Notes: a model not told the origin generated them from the sequence alone. 64,000 nt of DNA from Actinomycetales bacterium (GCA_038243055.1 JBBSRM010000002.1:3380-67379), one strand, 5' to 3'. Numbered from the stretch's first letter, positions 2,387 to 55,635 are shown. Program-made: numbers and translations.

Positions 2387-4545
2387 ATGCGTTCGGTGGC
2401 ACCGAGCGCGTCGAGGGCGAAGGCGTAATCCCAAGCCCGGTCCTTCCACGCCTCATAGCGGCCCGAGGCGCCGCCGTGTCCGCCATCCATTTCGATCTTC
2501 AGCACAATCGGTTCGCTGCCGGTGCTGATGTCACGCAACCGCTGCACCCATTTCGCCGGTTCGACGTAGAGCACCCGGGTGTCGTTCAGGCTCGTGACGG
2601 CGGCGATCTTCGGGTATTGCACCGCGGCGATGTTCTCGTACGGGGTGTAGGACTTCATGTACGCGTAGACGTCCGCGTCGGTGATCGGGTTGCCCCATTC
2701 CTCCCACTCCAGGGCCGACAACGGCAGCTCCGGGTCCAGGATGCTGGTCAGGGCGTCGACGAACGGCACCTGCGCCACGATCGCGGAATACAGCTGCGGT
2801 GCAAGGTTGGCGATGGCGCCCATGAGCAGGCCGCCGGCCGATCCGCCCATCGCCACGACACGGCGCGGGTGGGCCCACCCGGTGGCCACCACGTGTTCGG
2901 TCGCGGTGATGAAGTCGGTGAAGGAGTTCTTCTTCTCCAGCTTCTTGCCGTCGTCGTACCAGTGACGCCCCAACTCGCCACCCCCGCGCACATGGGCGAT
3001 GACGAAGACAACGCCACGATCCAGCAGGGAAAGCCTCGGGATCGAGAAACCGGGGTCCATGCTCATCTCGTAGCTGCCGTAGCCATAGACCAGCGCCGGA
3101 TTGGAGCCATTCCGGGAGATTTCGCGACGGCGGATGACCGAGAGGGGGATCCGGGTCCCGTCGGCGGCGGTGGCCCATTCGCGCTCGGCCACGTAGTCAC
3201 CGGCGTTGTACCCGCCCTTCACGGGGGTCTCCTTGCGCAGGGACAGCTCCCCGGAATCCAGCGTGTAGTCGTAGATGCGCGGCGGGACCAGGAAGCTGGT
3301 GTAGACCAGACGGATGACCGGGGAGTCGTATTCGGCTCCGGCCAGTGAGCAGGTGTAGAGCTCCTCGTCGAAGTCCGGTTCGGTGACAGCGGTCTGGGCC
3401 TCGGTGCCCAGTCCGGCCAGCGGCAGGACCTGGATCCGTTCGATGGTGTCTTGGCGGACGGAAACCATGGCATGCGTGGCGGTGACCGCGGTGCCCTCGA
3501 TCTTCACGTCCTCGCGGTGGGCGAAGACCGTGGCCCACTCCTGGTCGGCCAACGGCTTGGAGAACTCGTCGGCGGCGACCAGGGAGACCATGTTGTTCTC
3601 GGCGTCGAGGTTGTGCGTGAGCAGATAGGCGCGCTCGCCATCGACCGTCACCGGATCCATGCCATGCAGGATGTGTGCCTCGCGGCCCAGCAATAGGCGG
3701 GGAGCGGCGAGCGGGTCGACCAGGTCCAGCGAATGGGTCTCGGCATATTCGGAGTTGCCGATGGAAATCAGCAGTTCCTGCTGGTCGGGGGAGAGGTCGA
3801 ACCCCATCCACATGCCCGGATCGTCCTCCTGGAGCACGACGACGTCGCCGGAGGGATCCTGGCCCAGGGTGTGGGCCTTGATCTGGTTCGGGCGCCAGGA
3901 ATCGTCGACCACCGTGTAGTAGACCCGGGTGCCGTCGGGGGAGAAGGCCAGCCCGTAGAAGACGTTCTCGATGACGTCGGGAAGTAGCTCGCCGGTGGTC
4001 AGGTTCTTGATGCGCAGGGTGAATCGTTCGTCACCGGCGTTGTCCTGGGCGTAGGCGAGCAGGTTGCCGTCCTCGGTGACGGCCAGCCCGCCGAGCGCGA
4101 AGAACGGCTGGCCTGCCGCCTCGGCATTGCCGTCGATCAGCACCTGTTCGCCGCCGAACGGTTTCCCGGCTTCGATGACCGGCGGGGTCCAGTCCGCGGC
4201 GGGGTCCCCGGTATCGGTGGCGGCGACGCGGCAGTGCACAGCATACTGCTGGCCCTCGGCGGTCCGGGTGAAATACCACCAGCCGCGTTTGCGGGCAGGA
4301 ACCGAAAGATCCGTCTCCTCGGTGCGCTCCTTGATCTCGGCGAAGATCGAATCGCGCAGCTCCTGCTGCCCGGCGGTGACCGCCTCGGCGTAGGAGTTCT
4401 CGGCCTCGAGGTGGGCGATGACCTCCGGCTTCTCCTTCTCGCGCAACCATTCGTAGTCATCGACGAACGTGTCGCCGTGATGTGTGCGATGGACGGGGAC
4501 CTTGGCAGCGACAGGAGGCTGCGGTTCGATGGGGGATTCGCTCAT
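2383..4545 (-). CDS. ptrB: Oligopeptidase B (S9A prolyl oligopeptidase family)
   Basis: HHGDTFVDDYEWLR N-terminus, GGSAGG nucleophile motif, SLNDTRV, GHGG. Confidence 0.93.
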   Translation of the reverse strand: MSESPIEPQPPVAAKVPVHRTHHGDTFVDDYEWLREKEKPEVIAHLEAENSYAEAVTAGQQELRDSIFAEIKERTEETDLSVPARKRGWWYFTRTAEGQQYAVHCRVAATDTGDPAADWTPPVIEAGKPFGGEQVLIDGNAEAAGQPFFALGGLAVTEDGNLLAYAQDNAGDERFTLRIKNLTTGELLPDVIENVFYGLAFSPDGTRVYYTVVDDSWRPNQIKAHTLGQDPSGDVVVLQEDDPGMWMGFDLSPDQQELLISIGNSEYAETHSLDLVDPLAAPRLLLGREAHILHGMDPVTVDGERAYLLTHNLDAENNMVSLVAADEFSKPLADQEWATVFAHREDVKIEGTAVTATHAMVSVRQDTIERIQVLPLAGLGTEAQTAVTEPDFDEELYTCSLAGAEYDSPVIRLVYTSFLVPPRIYDYTLDSGELSLRKETPVKGGYNAGDYVAEREWATAADGTRIPLSVIRRREISRNGSNPALVYGYGSYEMSMDPGFSIPRLSLLDRGVVFVIAHVRGGGELGRHWYDDGKKLEKKNSFTDFITATEHVVATGWAHPRRVVAMGGSAGGLLMGAIANLAPQLYSAIVAQVPFVDALTSILDPELPLSALEWEEWGNPITDADVYAYMKSYTPYENIAAVQYPKIAAVTSLNDTRVLYVEPAKWVQRLRDISTGSEPIVLKIEMDGGHGGASGRYEAWKDRAWDYAFALDALGATERI

Positions 4546-47966: not shown

Positions 47967-50900
47967 TTATTCCGTGCCGGGGTTCAGATACGTCTGGACC
48001 GTCTGCACTGGTCGACCGGTCTGGACCAGCTGGGCCCGACCGGGGGAAAGCGGCCGGGCACGGATGTTGTTGATCAATCCGCCCTCGGACCGATCCCCGC
48101 TCATGATCAGCGCTGCCGTTCCGGCATCGCGCAGGGTGGAGAAGAACGATTCATACATGCCTCGGCTGGCGCTGCGGACCTTGCGGGTCAGGATGACATG
48201 CAGGTCCAGTTCATCGGCCATGGGCAGGTATTTGGTCAGGCGCGACAGCGGGGAGGAACCGCTGGCTGTCAACACGTCGTAGTCGTCGGCGATGATCACC
48301 AGCTTCGCCTTGCTGGGCTTGTTTTCCTCGTCGCCTCCCGTGCTGCGTAGCTCCAACTCGGCCGCCAGGGCCCCGGAGAGCTGTTCCCCGACGATGGCGC
48401 TGCCGGCGTAGCCACCCAGATAGTCGTCGGGCACGACGTCGTCGAGCCCCTTGCGGGGGTCGTAGACGCCGAAAAGCAAGTCATCCGGGGTGTGTTGAGC
48501 GACCAGGGTCGCGATGACGTTGCGCAGGATGTTGGATTTGCCCGATTCCTCGTCGCCGAGCATGATCAGGTGCCGGTCCTTGGCCTGCAGATCCAGGACA
48601 TGGGCGCCGAGGTCGACTTCGCGCAGGCCGAGCGGGAACTGGCCCTTGCCCGACGCTGCGGGGGCCTCATCCCAACCGACGCTGGCCGGCAGCACACGGA
48701 CCTTCATGGCGGTTTCGGTGGTGTGTTCGGCCACTTGGGCCACCAGATCCTTCAGGCCATCGGCGAGGTCCTCGGGATCGTCGACCCCGTCGATACGTGG
48801 CAGCGCCACATGGCCGATCAGCTTGCGGTCCGACAACGCCCGGCCGGGAGCCTCCGGGTTGATCCCGGGGGCAACCTTCCGATCGATCTGCGAGTCGGAG
48901 GGTTCGGCGAGGGCGGTCTCGATCTTGTTGCCGAAGAAGCCCTGTTGCGCCATGCGCAGTTCCGCATTGCGGTTCACGGTGGTCACGACATGGATGCCGT
49001 AGCCTCCACCGCGCATGATGAGCGCGAAGACGTTCTCCTGGATCTCCTCGAAGTCGTCGGCGATCTGTCCATAGCCGTCGATGACCAGGAAGATGTCGGC
49101 GCTGGGCAGTTCGGGGAGCCGGCCGGCGGCGTGCATGCGACGCATCGTGGTCAGGGAATCGATCTGGTGGTGTTCGAAGACCCGCTCACGGACCAGGAGC
49201 ATGCCCACCAGTTCCTCCACCGTGCGGCGGACGACCTCGCGGTTGGTACGGATCGCCGTTCCGCCGACATGGGGGAGCCCGCCCAGAGGCAGCAATGCGG
49301 AGCCGAGCAGGTCGATGCAGTAGATACCGATTTCATGGGGCGAGTGGGTCAACGCCATCGAAGCCACGACGGTACGCAATAAGGTGCTGCGGCCGGACTG
49401 TGGGCCTCCGGTGATCATCAGGTTCCCGCCGCCTGAGGTGAAATCGATCTGCCAGAGACCCTGCCACTGTTTGGCCGGGTCGTCGAGCAGGCCGATCGGT
49501 ACGCGCAACCCGCCTCCCGAACCCAGTTGGAGACCATGCTCGCCCGGATGGACGCCGCCGGCCGCGGCATCCAACGGGATGGCAGCCGGCAGTGGGGGCA
49601 ACCAGATCTCCTGGACCGAGCGCGGGAACGAACGCAGCGTGTCCATCAGCGTGGACATCACGGTCGGGCCGGTGGTGCGCTTGGCGGCCACATCCTTCCT
49701 CTTGGCGGCGCCCTCCCCCCCGTCAGCTTCCTCCCCCGCATAACGCGGGACCGTGAGCACGTCGGCGACCTCGGCCGGGGCCAGCTCATCCGCCTCGTCC
49801 TGCCGGACGTCCTCCACGGGGCCGGAGACGTAACCTGCCTTGAACCGCGTATAGACCGTGGTGTCGACCTTCAGGAAGCCGTAGCCGGGGACCGGGGGCA
49901 GGTGGAAGGCGTCGGGGCTGTCCAGCACTGTCCGCGATTCGGATTCGGACAGCGTTCGCAGGCCCAACCGGTAGGACAGATAGGTTTCCAGCCCCTTGAG
50001 CTTTCCGGATTCGACTCGCTGGCTACTCAGCAGCAGATGGACGCCGATGGAGCGGCCGATGCGCCCGATGGACAGGAACAGGTCGATGAAATCCGGGCGG
50101 GCCGTCAGTAGCTCGCCGAACTCGTCGATGATGACCACCAGATGCGGCAAGGGGGCCATATCCTCGCCACGGGCCAGGCGCTCATTGCGGTGGACCTGGT
50201 AGTCGGTGATGTTGGCGATGTTTCCCGCAGCCTTGAGGACTTCCTGACGACGCAGGATCTCGCCGTTGAGGCTGGCGTAGACGCGCTCGATCAGGGAAAG
50301 GTCATCCGAGAGGTTCGTGATGATGCCCGTGACCTGCGGCGCGCCTTCGAAGGGTGCGAAGGTGGCACCGCCCTTGAAATCCACCAGGACCATGGCCAAC
50401 ACGTCGGGGGAGTGGGTGGCCAGCAGCCCGAAGACGAGTGAACGCAGCATCTCCGATTTGCCCGAACCGGTGGCACCGACACATAAGCCGTGTGGGCCCA
50501 TGCCGAATTGGGCGGACTCCTTCAGATCCAGGACCGTGGGGCGACCGGCGTCGTCCGGCCCCAGGGGGATCCGCAGGAACTCGGCGTCGCCGCGCGGTTT
50601 CCAGGTGCGTTCTATATCGGACCGGTCCAGGTTGGCACTGAGCCCGAGCATGCCCAGGAAACTCTCGGCGCCTTGCCCCGAACCGCCATGCTCCAGTGAA
50701 TCGGCCGAGAGCCGCAGAGGGGCCAATTCATGGGCCAGCGCATCGGCCGTCGCGACGGATAGCGGGTCCAAGGAGCCCGAGGAAACTTCGGGGTGTACCG
50801 AGTCCGTCCGGTAGTCCTGGATCTGGAATCCCTGGCTGGTCTGGGTGATCCTGATGGTGATGTCGCTGGGTTCCTCGCTCCGATCGTGCACCAGGTGCAG

Positions 50901-51944
50901 AACCGTGAGGCCGAGATCGGCGGGGGAGAGGAAACGGTCGGCCAGGGGCAGCTCTTGTGCCCGGGTTCCGTGGGTATCCGAGACCACGACGAGTCGTGCC
51001 AGGGCCTGCCCGGCCCGACTATTCACCTTTTTTGCTTCCACGGCGATCTTGGCCCGTCGTCGCAGATCGGTATCCATGACGTCGGCCAACGATGCCAGGT
51101 CGGGGGAGATCCGGCGCTCCAGCTCCACCCCCGAACTTCTGCCCTGGTCTGCCAGATGCGGCAACCAGGTTGCCCACTGCCAGTCGTCCCTCAAATGTTC
51201 GGGGGTGCTGATGCCCAGGCCCAGGTCCTCGGGCGAATGGAAAGCGCTGGCCGAAATCAGGAGGTTCCGGGTGGCGGCGGTGACGAATTCGCGGTCGCCG
51301 ATGATGCTGACGTTCCCCACCGAATCGAGGGGAACCGTCACCGGCATGTCAGGGCTGGTGGAGAAGCGGCGTTTGAGGATTTCGGCTTCGGCGGCCATGA
51401 AGGAATCCGTTTGCTGGGTGGCGCCGGAGGCCTCGCTGACCGTGATGTCCCGGCAGGGGCGGTACCCGGAGCCGAGACGGACGTCCAGGAAGTCCTCGTT
51501 TCCGCGTCGGCGCTCCCAGAGCCGCATGGGCGTGCGGACGATATCGAAGAGGGCCTCGGGTGGCGGGGCACTTTGCCGGGCCACACCGAGCGCCTCGGTC
51601 TCGTCGGCGCGCATGTTCACGCGGGAGCGTTCCAGGTAGCGCATGTAGTTCTCGCGCAGCTGGGTGCGGGTCCTCACGGCCTTGCCTCGGTTGGAGAACA
51701 TCATGAAGATGGCGATCACCACGGTCACGATCATCATCATGGCGCCGATGGCCGCGAACGGGGAGTTGCGGAACATCATCATGGCTGTCATGGATACGGC
51801 GCCACCGAGCATGGGCACGATGGACATCAGGTTCAGGCCCGGGGCCTCGCCCTCGACCGGTGGGGGCCCATCGAGGAGGAAGGGGCGGAAGATACGCAGT
51901 GGTGCCGAGGTCCGCGCCGGGCGGTGGATGATTCGCTGGGCCAT
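47967..51944 (-). CDS. eccC: Type VII secretion FtsK/SpoIIIE ATPase EccC (fused EccCa-EccCb)
   Basis: Two N-terminal TMs, LWERR..DFL.VRLG, LDLKESAQFGMGPHGLCVGATGSGKSE, IIDEFGELL, three P-loop domains. Confidence 0.95.
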   Translation of the reverse strand: MAQRIIHRPARTSAPLRIFRPFLLDGPPPVEGEAPGLNLMSIVPMLGGAVSMTAMMMFRNSPFAAIGAMMMIVTVVIAIFMMFSNRGKAVRTRTQLRENYMRYLERSRVNMRADETEALGVARQSAPPPEALFDIVRTPMRLWERRRGNEDFLDVRLGSGYRPCRDITVSEASGATQQTDSFMAAEAEILKRRFSTSPDMPVTVPLDSVGNVSIIGDREFVTAATRNLLISASAFHSPEDLGLGISTPEHLRDDWQWATWLPHLADQGRSSGVELERRISPDLASLADVMDTDLRRRAKIAVEAKKVNSRAGQALARLVVVSDTHGTRAQELPLADRFLSPADLGLTVLHLVHDRSEEPSDITIRITQTSQGFQIQDYRTDSVHPEVSSGSLDPLSVATADALAHELAPLRLSADSLEHGGSGQGAESFLGMLGLSANLDRSDIERTWKPRGDAEFLRIPLGPDDAGRPTVLDLKESAQFGMGPHGLCVGATGSGKSEMLRSLVFGLLATHSPDVLAMVLVDFKGGATFAPFEGAPQVTGIITNLSDDLSLIERVYASLNGEILRRQEVLKAAGNIANITDYQVHRNERLARGEDMAPLPHLVVIIDEFGELLTARPDFIDLFLSIGRIGRSIGVHLLLSSQRVESGKLKGLETYLSYRLGLRTLSESESRTVLDSPDAFHLPPVPGYGFLKVDTTVYTRFKAGYVSGPVEDVRQDEADELAPAEVADVLTVPRYAGEEADGGEGAAKRKDVAAKRTTGPTVMSTLMDTLRSFPRSVQEIWLPPLPAAIPLDAAAGGVHPGEHGLQLGSGGGLRVPIGLLDDPAKQWQGLWQIDFTSGGGNLMITGGPQSGRSTLLRTVVASMALTHSPHEIGIYCIDLLGSALLPLGGLPHVGGTAIRTNREVVRRTVEELVGMLLVRERVFEHHQIDSLTTMRRMHAAGRLPELPSADIFLVIDGYGQIADDFEEIQENVFALIMRGGGYGIHVVTTVNRNAELRMAQQGFFGNKIETALAEPSDSQIDRKVAPGINPEAPGRALSDRKLIGHVALPRIDGVDDPEDLADGLKDLVAQVAEHTTETAMKVRVLPASVGWDEAPAASGKGQFPLGLREVDLGAHVLDLQAKDRHLIMLGDEESGKSNILRNVIATLVAQHTPDDLLFGVYDPRKGLDDVVPDDYLGGYAGSAIVGEQLSGALAAELELRSTGGDEENKPSKAKLVIIADDYDVLTASGSSPLSRLTKYLPMADELDLHVILTRKVRSASRGMYESFFSTLRDAGTAALIMSGDRSEGGLINNIRARPLSPGRAQLVQTGRPVQTVQTYLNPGTE

Positions 51945-51947
51945 CGG

Positions 51948-53009
51948 CTACCGGACCCCGTTGGCCAATTCGAGGGTGCGGGCGGCCAGGACGGTGCCCG
52001 CCTCCCGATGAGCCGGAAGCATCAACGGCAACGTGATACGTGCCCCCGCGGCTAGGTGGCGGTCGTAGCCGATGGCGTGGGCATCGAACCCGAGGCGGGA
52101 GAGCCGACCCGCCTGATCGAGAGCCTGCAAAGCCGACGAACGGTCCTGCTGCATCACGAGCACCGTCAGGGGCAAGGGGGCCAGAAGCGGGTTCGTCCGC
52201 CACACGGACAGGGCCGTGAGGGCGTCATCGAGGCCTGACAGCGTCGCCGGGACCACGAAGACGGCCCCATGGCAGTCAGCTAGTGCGGCCTGGGTTTCGG
52301 GCGCCTCCAGGCCGGTGGGGCAGTCGAGCAGGGTGATGGGAAAATAACGGGAAACCGTGGACGCGGCTTCCCGCAGCAAAGGGGCCGCAGTCCGCTGCGG
52401 TGAGCCCGAGCGTGGACCCGTTGCGTAGAGCCCCTCGGCAGCCGGGGCGAGCAACTCGGCCAGATGCGCGGCTCCGGGCTGGGCGCCGTTCGTGAGTTCG
52501 GGGACGATGGAGTCCAGGGCGGGAGCATCATCGAGCCCAAGGCGCAGTGCGAGGCTTCCGTGGCCCGGATCGAGGTCGAGGACGCACACGCTGTCGGGCC
52601 GTAGAGCCGAGAATGTGCGGGCCAGGAGTGCGGAGGCGGTCGTTTTACCGGCACCTCCACGCGTCGAGACCACGGCGATCCGTCGACCGGTGGTGACCGG
52701 TGCCTGCACGTCGGCAGCGAATTGGCTGACCTGCGTTGCCCGGTGCTTGCCGCCGAACAACATCCCGAGGGCGCGGGGGAGGGAGCCGCCGGTGGCCCGG
52801 ACACCGGACAGCCGGCGGCGGTCGTTCTCCAGCGGGGCACCCAGGGCATCGGCGGAGGACGGAACATGCGGGAGGGAGGGGGCGGGACCCCGGCCGGAGC
52901 TGGAACGCCGGCCACCCGGTGTGGGGGCCCAGGGATCGTTGACCCGCTGCCCCCACGGGTCGAGTTGTTGCTCGTTCGGCGGGTGGCCGGGATTCTGAGA
53001 TGCGGTCAT
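51948..53009 (-). CDS. MinD/ParA-like ATPase of the T7SS locus
   Basis: Pro-rich N-terminus; RIAVVSTRGGAGKTT, LDLDPG.GSL, LLDCP, YDRHL. Confidence 0.8.
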   Translation of the reverse strand: MTASQNPGHPPNEQQLDPWGQRVNDPWAPTPGGRRSSSGRGPAPSLPHVPSSADALGAPLENDRRRLSGVRATGGSLPRALGMLFGGKHRATQVSQFAADVQAPVTTGRRIAVVSTRGGAGKTTASALLARTFSALRPDSVCVLDLDPGHGSLALRLGLDDAPALDSIVPELTNGAQPGAAHLAELLAPAAEGLYATGPRSGSPQRTAAPLLREAASTVSRYFPITLLDCPTGLEAPETQAALADCHGAVFVVPATLSGLDDALTALSVWRTNPLLAPLPLTVLVMQQDRSSALQALDQAGRLSRLGFDAHAIGYDRHLAAGARITLPLMLPAHREAGTVLAARTLELANGVR

Positions 53010-53024
53010 GGAAGGTCCTTCGTG

Positions 53025-54371
53025 CTAGAACGTGTCCAGCATTTGGGCGTAGACGCCGAAGTAGCCGATGAGCAGGGGGATCGTGGCGAGTATGGCCAGG
53101 GTTTCGAGGCGTTCGCCGATCTGCCGGATCCGGGCCTCGATATGGACTGGCAGGTCCACAGCCAACCCCAGGCCGATCACCACGGCCAACACCAGGATGG
53201 ACAGGCCGACGATCCACACGGTGTCTTCGTTCAACCGGGTCAGTGCCCCGGTGCCTGCCAGGACTCCGATGGCAGTGGCCGCATAGAGCGAGTAGCGCTC
53301 CAGGGCCAGGGGGAAGGCCCGCGAGCGCAGCAGGGTTGCCAATGCGAGGGCCAGGAGCAGGGGAAGCGTCCACACGGGATGGCGATCGTCCGTGGCGACC
53401 AGCCACATCCCGGCGGCCGCGGAGACGGCCGCGGCCACGGTGGCCAGAGTGAGTCCGGCGTGGGCCGAACGGATGGCGGTGATGGCATCACGGCGCCAGA
53501 TGGAAGCACCATTGGCCCGCTGGTCGTCGAGGGTGGACAGTCCCGACAGGGACAGTGCCAGTGCCGGCAGCACGCCCATGATGAGTACGGAACAGATCGC
53601 CGCGATGGCGCCGACGCCGACGAGGAGGTCGGTATCGGTGCTGGTCGATGTCCAACGGGCCAGGGGCAGGGCCACGGCCCAGATGCCGGTCAGCGTCCCG
53701 AGGACACCGGCGCCGAGCAGCACGGCCCGTGGATGTTTGAGCACCGTCGCCAAGCAGGCGACGAAAACGGCACTGCCCGCCGCGGCGAGCAACAACCGCA
53801 ACGAGGGGTCCGCGGACCAATGGAGCAGGCCGATCATGCCCGCACCCCAGCCGGCACCCATCAGGGCAGAGGCCACCGGGCGGGAAGCAGCAGAGACCGA
53901 AGCGCCCAGCGTCAGCAGCCCGGCCCCCACGGCGAGCAGGATCCACCAGCGGGCATCCGGCAGGTACCTTCCCAACAGGAGGTCCAGTGCGAGCCAGAGT
54001 CCCAACGCGGCGAAGATCCCCGATGCGGTGACCAGATGTGTGCGATCCCAGGACCCCCGCACTTCACGGGATTGTTCGACGACGGTATCGGAGATGTCGT
54101 AGACGACGGCGGGCGGTGGGGCTTCGCTGTTGCTGACCAGGGTTAGTCGCGCACCGTCGAAAACCTGCGCCTGGGTCAACGTTTCCCGCGCGGGGATGGG
54201 CTCCCCGGTGGCGGTCAGGAGTACCTTGGTGGCGACGCCGTCGCCGGGGCTGTCGCCGAGCAGGTCGAGGATCTGCGGCATCAGCGTTCCCACGGACTCC
54301 GTGGCGGGCAGCAGCAGGTCGGCATTGCGGCGTTCTCCCACGAGGGTCACGCGTGTGTAGGGCTGGGCCAT
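53025..54371 (-). CDS. eccD: EccD-like T7SS membrane protein (ubiquitin-like YukD/EsaB domain plus about 11 TMs)
   Basis: TRVTLVGERRNADLLLP…TL.QA.VFDGARL.L, P.VYDISD.V, LRSRAFP, E…..ATIPL..G.FGVY. Confidence 0.85.
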   Translation of the reverse strand: MAQPYTRVTLVGERRNADLLLPATESVGTLMPQILDLLGDSPGDGVATKVLLTATGEPIPARETLTQAQVFDGARLTLVSNSEAPPPAVVYDISDTVVEQSREVRGSWDRTHLVTASGIFAALGLWLALDLLLGRYLPDARWWILLAVGAGLLTLGASVSAASRPVASALMGAGWGAGMIGLLHWSADPSLRLLLAAAGSAVFVACLATVLKHPRAVLLGAGVLGTLTGIWAVALPLARWTSTSTDTDLLVGVGAIAAICSVLIMGVLPALALSLSGLSTLDDQRANGASIWRRDAITAIRSAHAGLTLATVAAAVSAAAGMWLVATDDRHPVWTLPLLLALALATLLRSRAFPLALERYSLYAATAIGVLAGTGALTRLNEDTVWIVGLSILVLAVVIGLGLAVDLPVHIEARIRQIGERLETLAILATIPLLIGYFGVYAQMLDTF

Positions 54372-54377
54372 GACGGG

Positions 54378-54701
54378 CTAGTTCCCCATCCTTCCGGGGC
54401 TCGGGCTGGACAACGGCCACGCTGAGTGGTTCGGCACGATGAAGGCGGTGGCGGAGCTCTGCATCTGATCCTGTCGTTGCTTCTTCTCCTCGGCCCGGGT
54501 GGCGAGCATGTTGGAGACGAAGGAGACCCCGATGCAGATGGCGGTGATCAGGGCGGCGGCGACGAGGCTGAACAGGAACTGCTTCGTCGTCGCCTTCCAG
54601 CGACGCTCGGTCGGATTCTCACCGTAGAGGAGGGCATCGGTGACCCGGTTGCGGCGGACGGCGACCGACTCGATGAGCTGGCTGTCGAATTCAGTCGCCA
54701 C
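54378..54701 (-). CDS. 107-aa single-TM protein resembling the N-terminal segment of EccB
   Basis: DSQLIESVAVRRNRVTDALLYG…then one TM helix; first gene of the ecc operon. Confidence 0.6.
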   Translation of the reverse strand: MATEFDSQLIESVAVRRNRVTDALLYGENPTERRWKATTKQFLFSLVAAALITAICIGVSFVSNMLATRAEEKKQRQDQMQSSATAFIVPNHSAWPLSSPSPGRMGN

Positions 54702-54781
54702 GGGTCCCTCTCGGTCTAACGATGTGTTGGTGTGAGTCCATCATGTCAGGTCGATGGCTGAAAAATGGCAGAAAATCGGGG

Positions 54782-54803
54782 GCATGGGTAGTTCTCCCCA
54801 TGC
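54782..54803. promoter_or_regulatory. Imperfect 22-bp palindrome in the divergent T7SS promoter region
   Basis: GCATGGG-TAG-TT-CTC-CCCATGC, 7 bp upstream of TTGACC (54811). Confidence 0.6.
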
Positions 54804-54901
54804 AGAGCGCTTGACCCTGTTTATCGCCGTGCCGTTAGCTGATAACAAGCAAGGCACGGACAGCGCGGGCCCCGCCCCGCATCGACGAAAGGACGAGGGA
54901 T

Positions 54902-55246
54902 ATGAGCTTCAAAGGAAAAATGGACGTCAATGCCATCGGCAAGGCGGCGGAGGAGGCCAGCGGCTCCGGCGATGAGCTGGTGCGGTTGGTCGAGGAACTG
55001 GTTGACGGGGTCGAGGACCTGAAGACCACCTTCAAGGGCAACGGTGCGGTCTCCTACCAGAACTTCATGGCCGAGTCCCAGCGGGTCCAGCAGGACCTCA
55101 TCAAGGCCCTGTCGGGCATTTCACAAGGCCAGGCAGAGAGTGCCAAGCACTACGTCCAGATGGATGACGCCTTCGAAGCCGGCGGCAAAGAAGCAGAAGG
55201 CCAGGCTTCGGGAGCCAAGACCTCGGGCTTCAGCTTCTCCAAGTAG
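54902..55246 (+). CDS. WXG100-like T7SS substrate (FxG turn, YxxxD signal)
   Basis: 114 aa helical; central TFKGNGA; C-terminal HYVQMD. Confidence 0.8.
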   Translation: MSFKGKMDVNAIGKAAEEASGSGDELVRLVEELVDGVEDLKTTFKGNGAVSYQNFMAESQRVQQDLIKALSGISQGQAESAKHYVQMDDAFEAGGKEAEGQASGAKTSGFSFSK

Positions 55247-55338
55247 CCAGTACTCCACAGTGCCTTCGGGCGCCGTCGCCGGCGCCCCACCAGCCCGACA
55301 CACAGGTCCGGTACGGACCCGCAGAAAAGGATTTGAAC

Positions 55339-55635
55339 ATGCCAGAAGGACTCATCCAGTTCGACAGCGACGCCGCCTCACGCACCGAAGGCGACATCAT
55401 CCGCATTGCCGGACGCATTGAAAGCATCATCGGCGACCGCGAATCCCAGACGAAGTTCGTCAAGGACAACTGGGAAGACAACAACTCGGGAGACGCATAC
55501 TCCAGCGTCGAAAAGGATTGGCTCGACGCCGCCGGTGAAACCCTCCAGCTCGTGCACAAGGCGCGCAAGCTTTTGGGCGAAAACTCCGTGACTGCCAAGG
55601 ATGCCAGCGGGAAGGTCCAAGGCATCTGGGGCTGA
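55339..55635 (+). CDS. ESAT-6/WXG100-like protein (atypical, WED turn)
   Basis: 98 aa helical hairpin; FDSDAA…I…IE..IGDR…DNWED…Y…E..W; tandem with the preceding gene. Confidence 0.72.
   Translation: MPEGLIQFDSDAASRTEGDIIRIAGRIESIIGDRESQTKFVKDNWEDNNSGDAYSSVEKDWLDAAGETLQLVHKARKLLGENSVTAKDASGKVQGIWG

Follow-up and report, generated by a model that had tools for sequence, protein, structure and literature searches.

The DNA analysed here is a stretch of 64,000 nucleotides from an Actinomycetales bacterium (GCA_038243055.1, JBBSRM010000002.1:3380-67379; hereafter the window). Between positions 47,967 and 55,635 it carries a locus that is probably an intact type VII secretion system (T7SS) belonging to a distinct actinobacterial lineage, here called p107-type. 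Its components are EccC, EccD, an EspI-like protein and a small protein of 107 aa (p107), and it has no EccB and apparently no dedicated mycosin (MycP). An initial annotation of the window had proposed a stripped-down T7SS in which EccB was reduced to about 100 aa. The distinct architecture without EccB and MycP withstood further analysis, whereas the terms "mini-EccB" and "stripped-down" did not. This Arthrobacter rhombi-type organism has no T7SS other than this one. Since the NCBI Prokaryotic Genome Annotation Pipeline (PGAP) already names EccC, EccD and WXG100 proteins in these genomes, the novelty lies in the architecture, its phylogenetic position and the p107 family. No published description of such an architecture was found in the open-access literature.

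Gene content of the locus

All six genes initially annotated are present at their assigned positions. Four lie on the minus strand, separated by only 6, 15 and 3 nt. The first gene of this operon encodes p107 (54,378-54,701), with one predicted transmembrane (TM) helix at residues 44-62. It is followed by eccD (53,025-54,371), whose 448-aa product combines a YukD (ubiquitin-like) N-terminus with a polytopic membrane domain, as in EccD of T7SSa/ESX-4. It matches PF08817, PF19053 and TIGR03920 (124 bits for a cut-off of 95) and is the sole EccD identified in the assembly by a genome-wide profile search. The third gene (51,948-53,009) encodes a 353-aa MinD/ParA-like protein with weak matches to CbiA, ParA and Ssd/MinD, all below cut-off. 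The last gene, eccC (47,967-51,944), specifies a 1325-aa FtsK/SpoIIIE-type motor ATPase. Both the EccCa and the EccCb models are matched above cut-off (TIGR03924, 725 bits; TIGR03925, 601 bits) and the two halves are therefore fused. The protein carries two N-terminal TM helices (residues 39-57 and 65-83) and three FtsK_SpoIIIE stretches, that is, the membrane anchor and three-domain layout of T7SSa/ESX-4 EccC, with Walker A motifs GATGSGKS at residue 490 and GDEESGKS at residue 1130. It is the only EccC-grade match in the assembly.

The WXG100 pair typical of T7SSa/ESX-4 is encoded divergently on the plus strand. Protein A (54,902-55,246; 114 aa) matches PF06013 with 37.6 bits for a cut-off of 27.3, and the WXG100-like protein B (55,333-55,635; 100 aa) stays below cut-off, with 17 bits on PF06013 and 50 bits on ESAT6_3. 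The intergenic region separating this pair from the machine operon (54,702-54,901) presumably includes the promoters of both transcription directions, although a scan of the locus for consensus sigma-70 promoters and for terminators gave nothing above chance.

As originally reported, the locus includes no EccB, linked mycosin, EccA, EccE, PE/PPE or Ess protein. Pfam and NCBIfam profiles of the Ess families found no match among the locus proteins, a search that was not extended to the whole genome. The genome-wide search for EccE (PF11203) was negative, but so was that of the control genomes. The locus is flanked by rarD (TIGR00688, 191 bits) and by a gene for a 480-aa FAD/NAD(P) oxidoreductase; the name fprA given to the latter is plausible but was not confirmed by a specific model.

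EccC proteins of this type form a separate clade

A maximum likelihood tree was computed from 40 EccC-type proteins (1306 columns, LG+G4, quick search), including two distant, long-branched FtsK-like proteins as outgroups and excluding one truncated EccC (L133). All 23 p107-type EccCs group in a single clade (Shimodaira-Hasegawa-like approximate likelihood ratio test, SH-aLRT, of 100) and all 15 EccB-linked, canonical EccCs in another (SH-aLRT 99). The canonical set comprises four mycobacterium-like paralogues, Streptomyces-like copies and one copy from the window's own family. The window EccC therefore does not nest among the EccB-linked EccCs of this tree, in agreement with the initial proposal that the system stands apart from canonical ESX-4. 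Its sequence identity is 43-48% with p107-type EccCs of other families and 34-37% with canonical ones. Scores on TIGR03924 follow the same division (656-754 bits for p107-type and 757-946 bits for canonical members). The split between the two groups is robust, whereas the position of the root depends on the long-branched outgroups.

Conservation and distribution

The gene order p107-eccD-ATPase-eccC, with the WXG100 pair opposite and the same flanks, is found in all seven congeners. Identities range from 64 to 96% for the locus proteins and from 87 to 96% for EccC. The four-gene core is also colinear in two other genera. A search of species-representative genomes with an EccD profile retrieved 47 loci, nearly all from Micrococcaceae (many Arthrobacter, Zafaria, Kocuria polaris, Micrococcus terreus, Zhihengliuella, Citricoccus and Crystallibacter), the closest being those of the Arthrobacter rhombi group. 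Those not labelled Micrococcaceae are one Saccharothrix locus, one contig of an Acidobacteria metagenome-assembled genome and two loci assigned only to Actinomycetota. The core is colinear in all of them, except one that is ended by a contig edge, and none of the 47 includes an EccB, mycosin or other S8 protease gene within 10 kb.

The survey was widened to 400 genomes, sampled evenly from the class. With the thresholds used, EccD was detected in 106 genomes, EccB in 90 and EccD without EccB in 16 (one of the latter, G061, is unpublished). The p107 profile gave strong matches in 22 genomes, including the window's own. The 12 p107 loci that were retrieved all lie close upstream of an eccD unlinked to eccB. 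A same-type EccC or ATPase match follows in 11 of them, and neither EccB nor mycosin was found in these twelve 18-kb stretches. The arrangement recurs outside Micrococcaceae, where the core was found in Streptomyces ficellus, Nocardiopsis listeri, Cryobacterium sp. and Saccharothrix. Nine genomes (G045, G054, G061, G137, G138, G230, G246, G391 and G393) carry EccD with neither an EccB nor a p107 match, and further T7SS architectures may be present among them.

Setting aside the window's own genome, 14 of the 21 p107-bearing genomes encode a canonical EccB elsewhere. The p107-type system is the sole T7SS in these Micrococcaceae but coexists with canonical systems in large actinomycete genomes. 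This coexistence in Streptomyces-like and Nocardiopsis-like genomes is at odds with the notion of a stripped-down system. Together with the separate EccC clade, it indicates that the locus type is an old parallel lineage and not a recent reduction of ESX-4 in a mycolate-free host.

The p107 family

p107 matches no Pfam or NCBIfam family, including the EccB profiles PF05108 and TIGR03919. It is composed of a conserved N-terminal region of about 40 residues (consensus D.QLIESV.VRR.R...L...NP..RRW), a TM helix in which a Cys and a Ser-Phe are conserved in family alignments, and a variable low-complexity tail rich in Q/E/R and in P. The positive charges preceding the helix suggest that the N-terminus is cytoplasmic. 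The gene is located directly upstream of eccD in 47 of 47 loci retrieved with the EccD profile and likewise in loci from other families. In a comparison with Saccharothrix, the p107 N-terminus (44% identity) is about as conserved as EccC (47%) and more conserved than EccD or the ATPase (32% each). A profile search of 1.84 billion representative proteins retrieved 202 clusters, 154 of them with E <= 1e-10, in nearly all of which the module is N-terminal. The homologue of Arthrobacter rhombi is annotated by PGAP as "hypothetical protein".

The resemblance to EccB did not survive direct comparison. BLASTP of p107 against the EccB of the assembly gave E = 29, and two hhalign comparisons of the p107 family with EccB N-termini gave probabilities of 21.6% and 36.4%, both with alignments confined to the TM helix. 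In view of these results and of the lack of a match to the EccB models, p107 was rejected as a mini-EccB. The label "EccB-like" for the 107-aa protein is an interpretation and not an observation. The likeness is limited to topology and to the length and spacing of the N-terminal segment.

About 90% of the 150 representatives listed are short (65-190 aa) and free of recognizable domains, while a minority reach 266-443 aa. Among the long representatives, three carry a TNT domain and one shows weak nuclease-toxin-like matches. Homologues from Nocardiopsis-type genomes (326-367 aa; L132:11474-12577, L133:5032-6012, L136:11689-12681 and L137:11645-12652) share the N-terminal module and TM helix but are extended by a C-terminal TNT domain (PF14021, E = 1e-19 to 1e-21). 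These fusions precede eccD as the first gene of the operon and are named "TNT domain-containing protein" by NCBI.

A conserved N-terminal module followed by highly variable C-termini, some of them TNT or nuclease-toxin-like, would also be expected of a membrane-anchored T7SS-associated effector, whose N-terminus and TM helix would serve for docking or trafficking and of which the window copy would be a cargo-less stub. We consider this unlikely. Most representatives listed carry no domain at all, and p107 is always the first gene of the machine operon and never found among the substrate genes. The conservation of its N-terminus equals that of EccC, but the WXG100 substrates are too divergent to be detected from one family to another. 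The T7SS substrates known so far are soluble helical hairpins and not N-in signal-anchor proteins.

Structure prediction also bears on this point, weakly. A predicted complex of EccD, EccC (residues 1-430) and p107 scored 0.48, compared with 0.01 for the best control, and the score fell to 0.00 when EccD was replaced. The runs share at least 85% of contacts and the pLDDT (predicted local distance difference test) of the partner is at least 69. In a calibration set, from which this prediction differs in using its own alignments and three chains, 58 of 80 solved complexes and 2 of 110 mismatched pairs scored 0.48 or more. Scores of 0.60 or less came from only 7 of those 80 complexes and from both of the two mismatches; in this range scores are more often wrong than right. 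Because of its EccC-level conservation, its fixed position as first gene and this weakly supported, EccD-dependent predicted contact, we favour p107 as a structural subunit with a variable outer part.

An EccB gene on a probably foreign contig

The assembly (433 contigs, 3.03 Mb, 88.9% complete, with measured contamination) does include a full-length EccB of 519 aa, on the 1943-bp contig C373 (L001:215-1774; PF05108, 472 bits; TIGR03919, 427 bits). It also encodes two S8 proteases whose best NCBIfam match is mycosin (240 and 232 bits, below cut-off). The locus could therefore be an ordinary ESX-4-type system whose EccB and MycP are encoded elsewhere (C373 and C121/C311), an arrangement that the initial annotation had regarded as fatal to its proposal. 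The codon usage of the EccB gene is unremarkable. However, several observations make this explanation highly improbable, beyond the position of the window EccC outside the canonical clade.

First, no EccB (PF05108) was found in any of the seven congeners, which all carry the same eccD locus (six genomes are 99-100% complete and one 68%). Nor was any found in five further Micrococcaceae genomes with the same locus: A. rhombi JCM 11678, Micrococcus terreus and the closed chromosomes of A. luteolus KNS-306, Arthrobacter sp. ATA002 and Arthrobacter sp. N1. Second, the affinities of the C373 protein lie elsewhere. It is 27% identical to two EccBs from canonical loci of the same order and 37-39% identical to Mycobacteriales-like ones. 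In a collection of 5.8 billion proteins its best named relative is from Rhodococcus sp. X156 (64%), followed by others from Rhodococcus, Nocardia and Gordonia, and no Micrococcaceae appear among its relatives. A 78%-identical homologue belongs to a textbook ESX-4 locus (rplQ-truA-x-eccE-eccB-mycP-eccD-eccC-x-esx-esx), which indicates that an EccB of this kind travels with its own EccC and EccD. Third, the ppx-S8 locus is duplicated in the assembly. The copy on C121 (L014) is 95% identical to those of the congeners, whereas that on C311 (L015) differs from it markedly (75% identity for the S8 protease and 57% for ppx). This second copy demonstrates that foreign contigs are present in the bin, which looks like a mixture with a second Micrococcaceae organism as the source of C311.

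The GC content of C373 (0.697 against 0.657 for the genome) falls at about the 95th-99th percentile of contigs, but its codon usage and GC content at third codon positions are within the genome's range. The compositional test was accordingly dropped as powerless and the assignment is based on phylogenetic affinity and on absence in relatives. A plasmid origin was also discarded, the top plasmid matches being only 35% identical and mycobacterial. Judged by these affinities, C373 is very likely a mis-binned contig from a Mycobacteriales organism of the same sample. The only EccB of the assembly is thus this copy of Mycobacteriales affinity, and none is encoded at the locus.

Mycosin-like S8 proteases

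No mycosin is linked to the locus, as stated in the initial annotation, but mycosin-like S8 genes are present elsewhere in the genome. Of 31 relatives, 28 encode such a protease, with scores of 216-276 bits on the mycosin model, and at least 10 of these have no EccD; the distribution of the proteases is independent of that of T7SS. The native copy carries a C-terminal membrane anchor and adjoins ppx, a synteny kept in genomes devoid of T7SS. The ppx-linked S8 shares only 25-29% identity with truly eccB-linked mycosins. The score on the mycosin model (TIGR03921, cut-off 279 bits) was rejected as a discriminator since linked and unlinked proteases score alike (217-235 bits for linked mycosins of the same order and 238 bits for the ppx-linked S8). 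By its synteny and sequence, the ppx-linked S8 does not appear to be a dedicated T7SS part.

Another very improbable explanation is a decaying remnant that has lost EccB and MycP and, with them, secretion: components essential in mycobacterial ESX systems are indeed missing and the WXG100 proteins are atypical, but all open reading frames (ORFs) are intact and tightly spaced, Walker motifs are retained, and the conservation of sequence and gene order in congeners, together with a core colinear in 47 loci and four other families, implies long-term purifying selection.

The EspI-like protein

The 353-aa protein is composed of a Pro-rich N-terminus of about 100 residues, probably disordered, followed by a P-loop domain with Walker A (RGGAGKTT) and Walker B (LLDCP) motifs. 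Throughout the family Walker A reads RGGxGK[ST], the signature Lys being replaced by Arg, and the Walker B Asp is present. Its matches in the PDB are MinD and Soj structures (E = 1e-5 to 1e-4). In mycobacterium-like genomes the best matches adjoin eccD genes of ESX loci; among them, a 658-aa open frame beside eccD, in a locus with a split eccC, has the position and size of ESX-1 EspI. EspI (Rv3876) of mycobacterial ESX-1 is rich in Pro, carries a MinD/ParA-like ATP-binding domain at its C-terminus and has its gene adjacent to eccD1. A MinD-like domain is also found near the canonical locus of S. ficellus.

The window protein shares with EspI the Pro-rich N-terminus, the MinD/ParA-type P-loop domain and the adjacency to eccD. 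However, it is about half as long, its gene separates eccD from eccC in an operon of four genes, its family has the RGGxGK form of Walker A and the mycobacterial match is only about 30% identical. It is best described, from its sequence, as EspI-like, a tentative label reached through the eccD-adjacent mycobacterium-like matches.

In several relatives (L059, L061, L069, L070, L095, L132, L136 and L137) the gene keeps its place in the operon but the P-loop Lys is replaced (GAGTTT, GAGATT, GAGR[ST]T) or the whole Walker A motif is gone. ATP turnover can therefore not be universally required, and in these lineages the protein may act as a pseudo-ATPase scaffold.

WXG100 proteins and toxin cassettes

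The hairpin turn of protein A reads F-K-G, and its C-terminal part comprises a YVQMD motif of the YxxxD type and a tail rich in Gly, Ala and Ser. Protein A is the partner that bears the signal, as EsxB does, and its homologues are named "WXG100 family type VII secretion target" by PGAP. Protein B, with W-E-D at the turn, is the EsxA-like partner; it scores 50 bits, below cut-off, on NF035935 (pore-forming ESAT-6 family), a model on which its homologue in Arthrobacter sp. USHLN218 (L062) reaches 159 bits. A true W-x-G is missing from both.

A third WXG100 gene, with a canonical W-H-G, is located at the end of contig C240 (positions 3562-3750 of the contig; L159) and is truncated by the contig end. 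It lies downstream of a MtrAB-like response regulator and histidine kinase and is kept in five of five congeners tested. This orphan is likely a third substrate. Another, weak WXG100 match, on contig C94, proved spurious since it falls inside a YhgE/Pip-type ABC-2 membrane protein. The latter (L158:2331-4649; 772 aa, DUF3533 and ABC2_membrane_3), which is followed by a TetR regulator, belongs, broadly, to the family of T7SSb EsaA, although here it has no linkage to the T7SS.

Toxin cassettes occur on the substrate side of the locus in Arthrobacter sp. USHLN218 (L062:2859-9020) and A. luteolus (L070:3395-9402). Encoded there are a WXG protein of the ESAT6_3 type, one with DUF6507 and one of 1000-1100 aa; the small ORFs located downstream could provide immunity. 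In L062 the large protein (1107 aa) ends in an Endonuclea_NS_2 domain and a homologue is labelled "EssD-like" in UniRef. Used as query, this nuclease toxin found no match in the present genome, which is 88.9% complete. The locus in the window represents the minimal form: it carries the WXG100 pair only and no toxin gene is nearby. The cassettes of relatives are arranged like those of polymorphic antibacterial toxins exported by T7SS, and the lineage probably functions in competition between bacteria.

Apart from this locus, contig C106 (L016:3054-6920) encodes a 1288-aa FtsK/SpoIIIE-family protein with an FHA domain, which scores 209 bits on the EssC model, well below cut-off. The gene adjoins a PknB-type PASTA kinase gene and is divergent from a CpaF/T2SSE-type ATPase gene. 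This locus may be related to kinase-linked T7SSd-like or to Tad-associated systems.

Comparison with known T7SS

According to the fullest survey of T7SS variants (Garrett, Higginson & Palmer 2024, PMC11217815), every ESX system includes EccB, EccC, EccD and MycP, and ESX-4 is the sole T7SS of non-mycobacterial Actinomycetota. EccB and MycP have served as defining markers in studies of ESX evolution (PMC4779608, PMC5381665). The window locus shares with ESX-4-type T7SSa an EccC that passes the EccCa and EccCb cut-offs and is built of two TM helices at the N-terminus and three domains of FtsK type, an EccD with a YukD-like domain and a WXG100 pair of which one member bears YxxxD. It differs in having no EccB, either at the locus or in the genomes of relatives, and no linked mycosin or EccE. 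Instead, p107 and the EspI-like ATPase are conserved, and the p107-type EccCs fall outside all canonical EccCs tested, mycobacterium-like ESX paralogues included.

Subtypes T7SSc to T7SSj were also defined in PMC11217815. As a general rule, T7SS variants retain the ATPase together with a WXG100 protein and a module like ubiquitin but exchange their other membrane parts, and the p107-type conforms to it. A small, conserved single-pass subunit with a short cytoplasmic region is equally a shared feature (TsdH, TseK and EssA of T7SSb). However, an EccD-type polytopic protein and an EspI-like ATPase occur together in none of the published subtypes. Among the new subtypes only T7SSd is actinobacterial; it comprises an FHA-bearing ATPase (TsdC), a Ser/Thr kinase (TsdD), TsdH and the large TsdI, and no ubiquitin-like protein (PMC11217815). 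In contrast, the window locus includes an EccD with YukD and lacks FHA, kinase and large Ig-like proteins. It also differs from T7SSb, its EccC having no FHA match and scoring 483 bits on TIGR03928 for a cut-off of 778. The protein of about 1100 aa found in relatives resembles the EsaD/EssD toxins of T7SSb by its C-terminal Endonuclea_NS_2 domain and its position after WXG-like and helper genes, but the cassette belongs to a relative (L062) and not to the window, and its export by a p107-type machine is hypothetical.

A possible mechanism

Gene content, its conservation, the separate EccC clade and the lack of EccB in relatives are observations, whereas we infer that the system secretes, how its subunits touch and what p107 and the ATPase do. 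The two WXG100 proteins would associate into a heterodimer, and the one with YxxxD would bind the ATPase domain at the C-terminus of EccC, in the manner of ESX systems. EccC would serve as motor and channel; its hexamers, kept in place by EccD as the membrane scaffold, would move the dimer across the single membrane. Within the membrane p107 would contact EccD, its conserved N-terminal helix facing the cytoplasm; it would share the topology of the EccB anchor, although homology between the two is unsupported. The EspI-like protein may regulate the system or assist its assembly from the cytoplasmic side, and in several relatives would do so with no functional P-loop. In the absence of a mycomembrane and of a periplasmic dome, export would stop at the cell wall.

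Several observations weigh against the reading of the locus as an intact T7SS of a distinct lineage. The EccC tree is a quick LG+G4 search with long-branched outgroups and its root is not robust. As the codon usage of C373 fits the genome, the verdict on its EccB leans on phylogenetic affinity and on the relatives. A membrane-anchored, mycosin-like S8 protease is present in every congener and may act in trans, since the model score cannot tell linked from unlinked proteases. The TNT or nuclease-like C-termini of some p107 members would also fit an effector family, the predicted contact between p107 and EccD is weakly supported, and the degenerate P-loop of several relatives blurs the role of the ATPase.

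A wider interpretation, for which the case is not quite balanced, can be put forward tentatively. The p107-type could constitute an undescribed T7SS subtype, apparently sister to all canonical T7SSa and spread over Micrococcaceae, Microbacteriaceae, Streptomyces, Nocardiopsis and Saccharothrix. Its core would be formed by EccC, EccD, an EspI-like ATPase or pseudo-ATPase and p107, and would work without EccB and MycP, the p107 module being in some lineages a docking anchor that displays TNT toxins on the cell surface.

Implications

The case of C373 is also a lesson for surveys of this kind, as one mis-binned contig of 1.9 kb would have wrongly refuted the finding of an EccB-less system. Current models of T7SSa, derived from the mycobacterial ESX-3 and ESX-5 structures, count EccB and MycP as core components. 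A widespread EccC/EccD lineage that replaces them shows which contacts are truly indispensable, and the p107-type offers a simpler, monoderm T7SSa-like machine for structural work. Through the p107 family about 200 "hypothetical" clusters gain a name and a context. With two T7SS lineages side by side in Streptomyces and Nocardiopsis, the allocation of substrates to one or the other becomes a question. Finally, the toxin cassettes of relatives suggest a role in competition, including in cheese- and fish-associated Arthrobacter.

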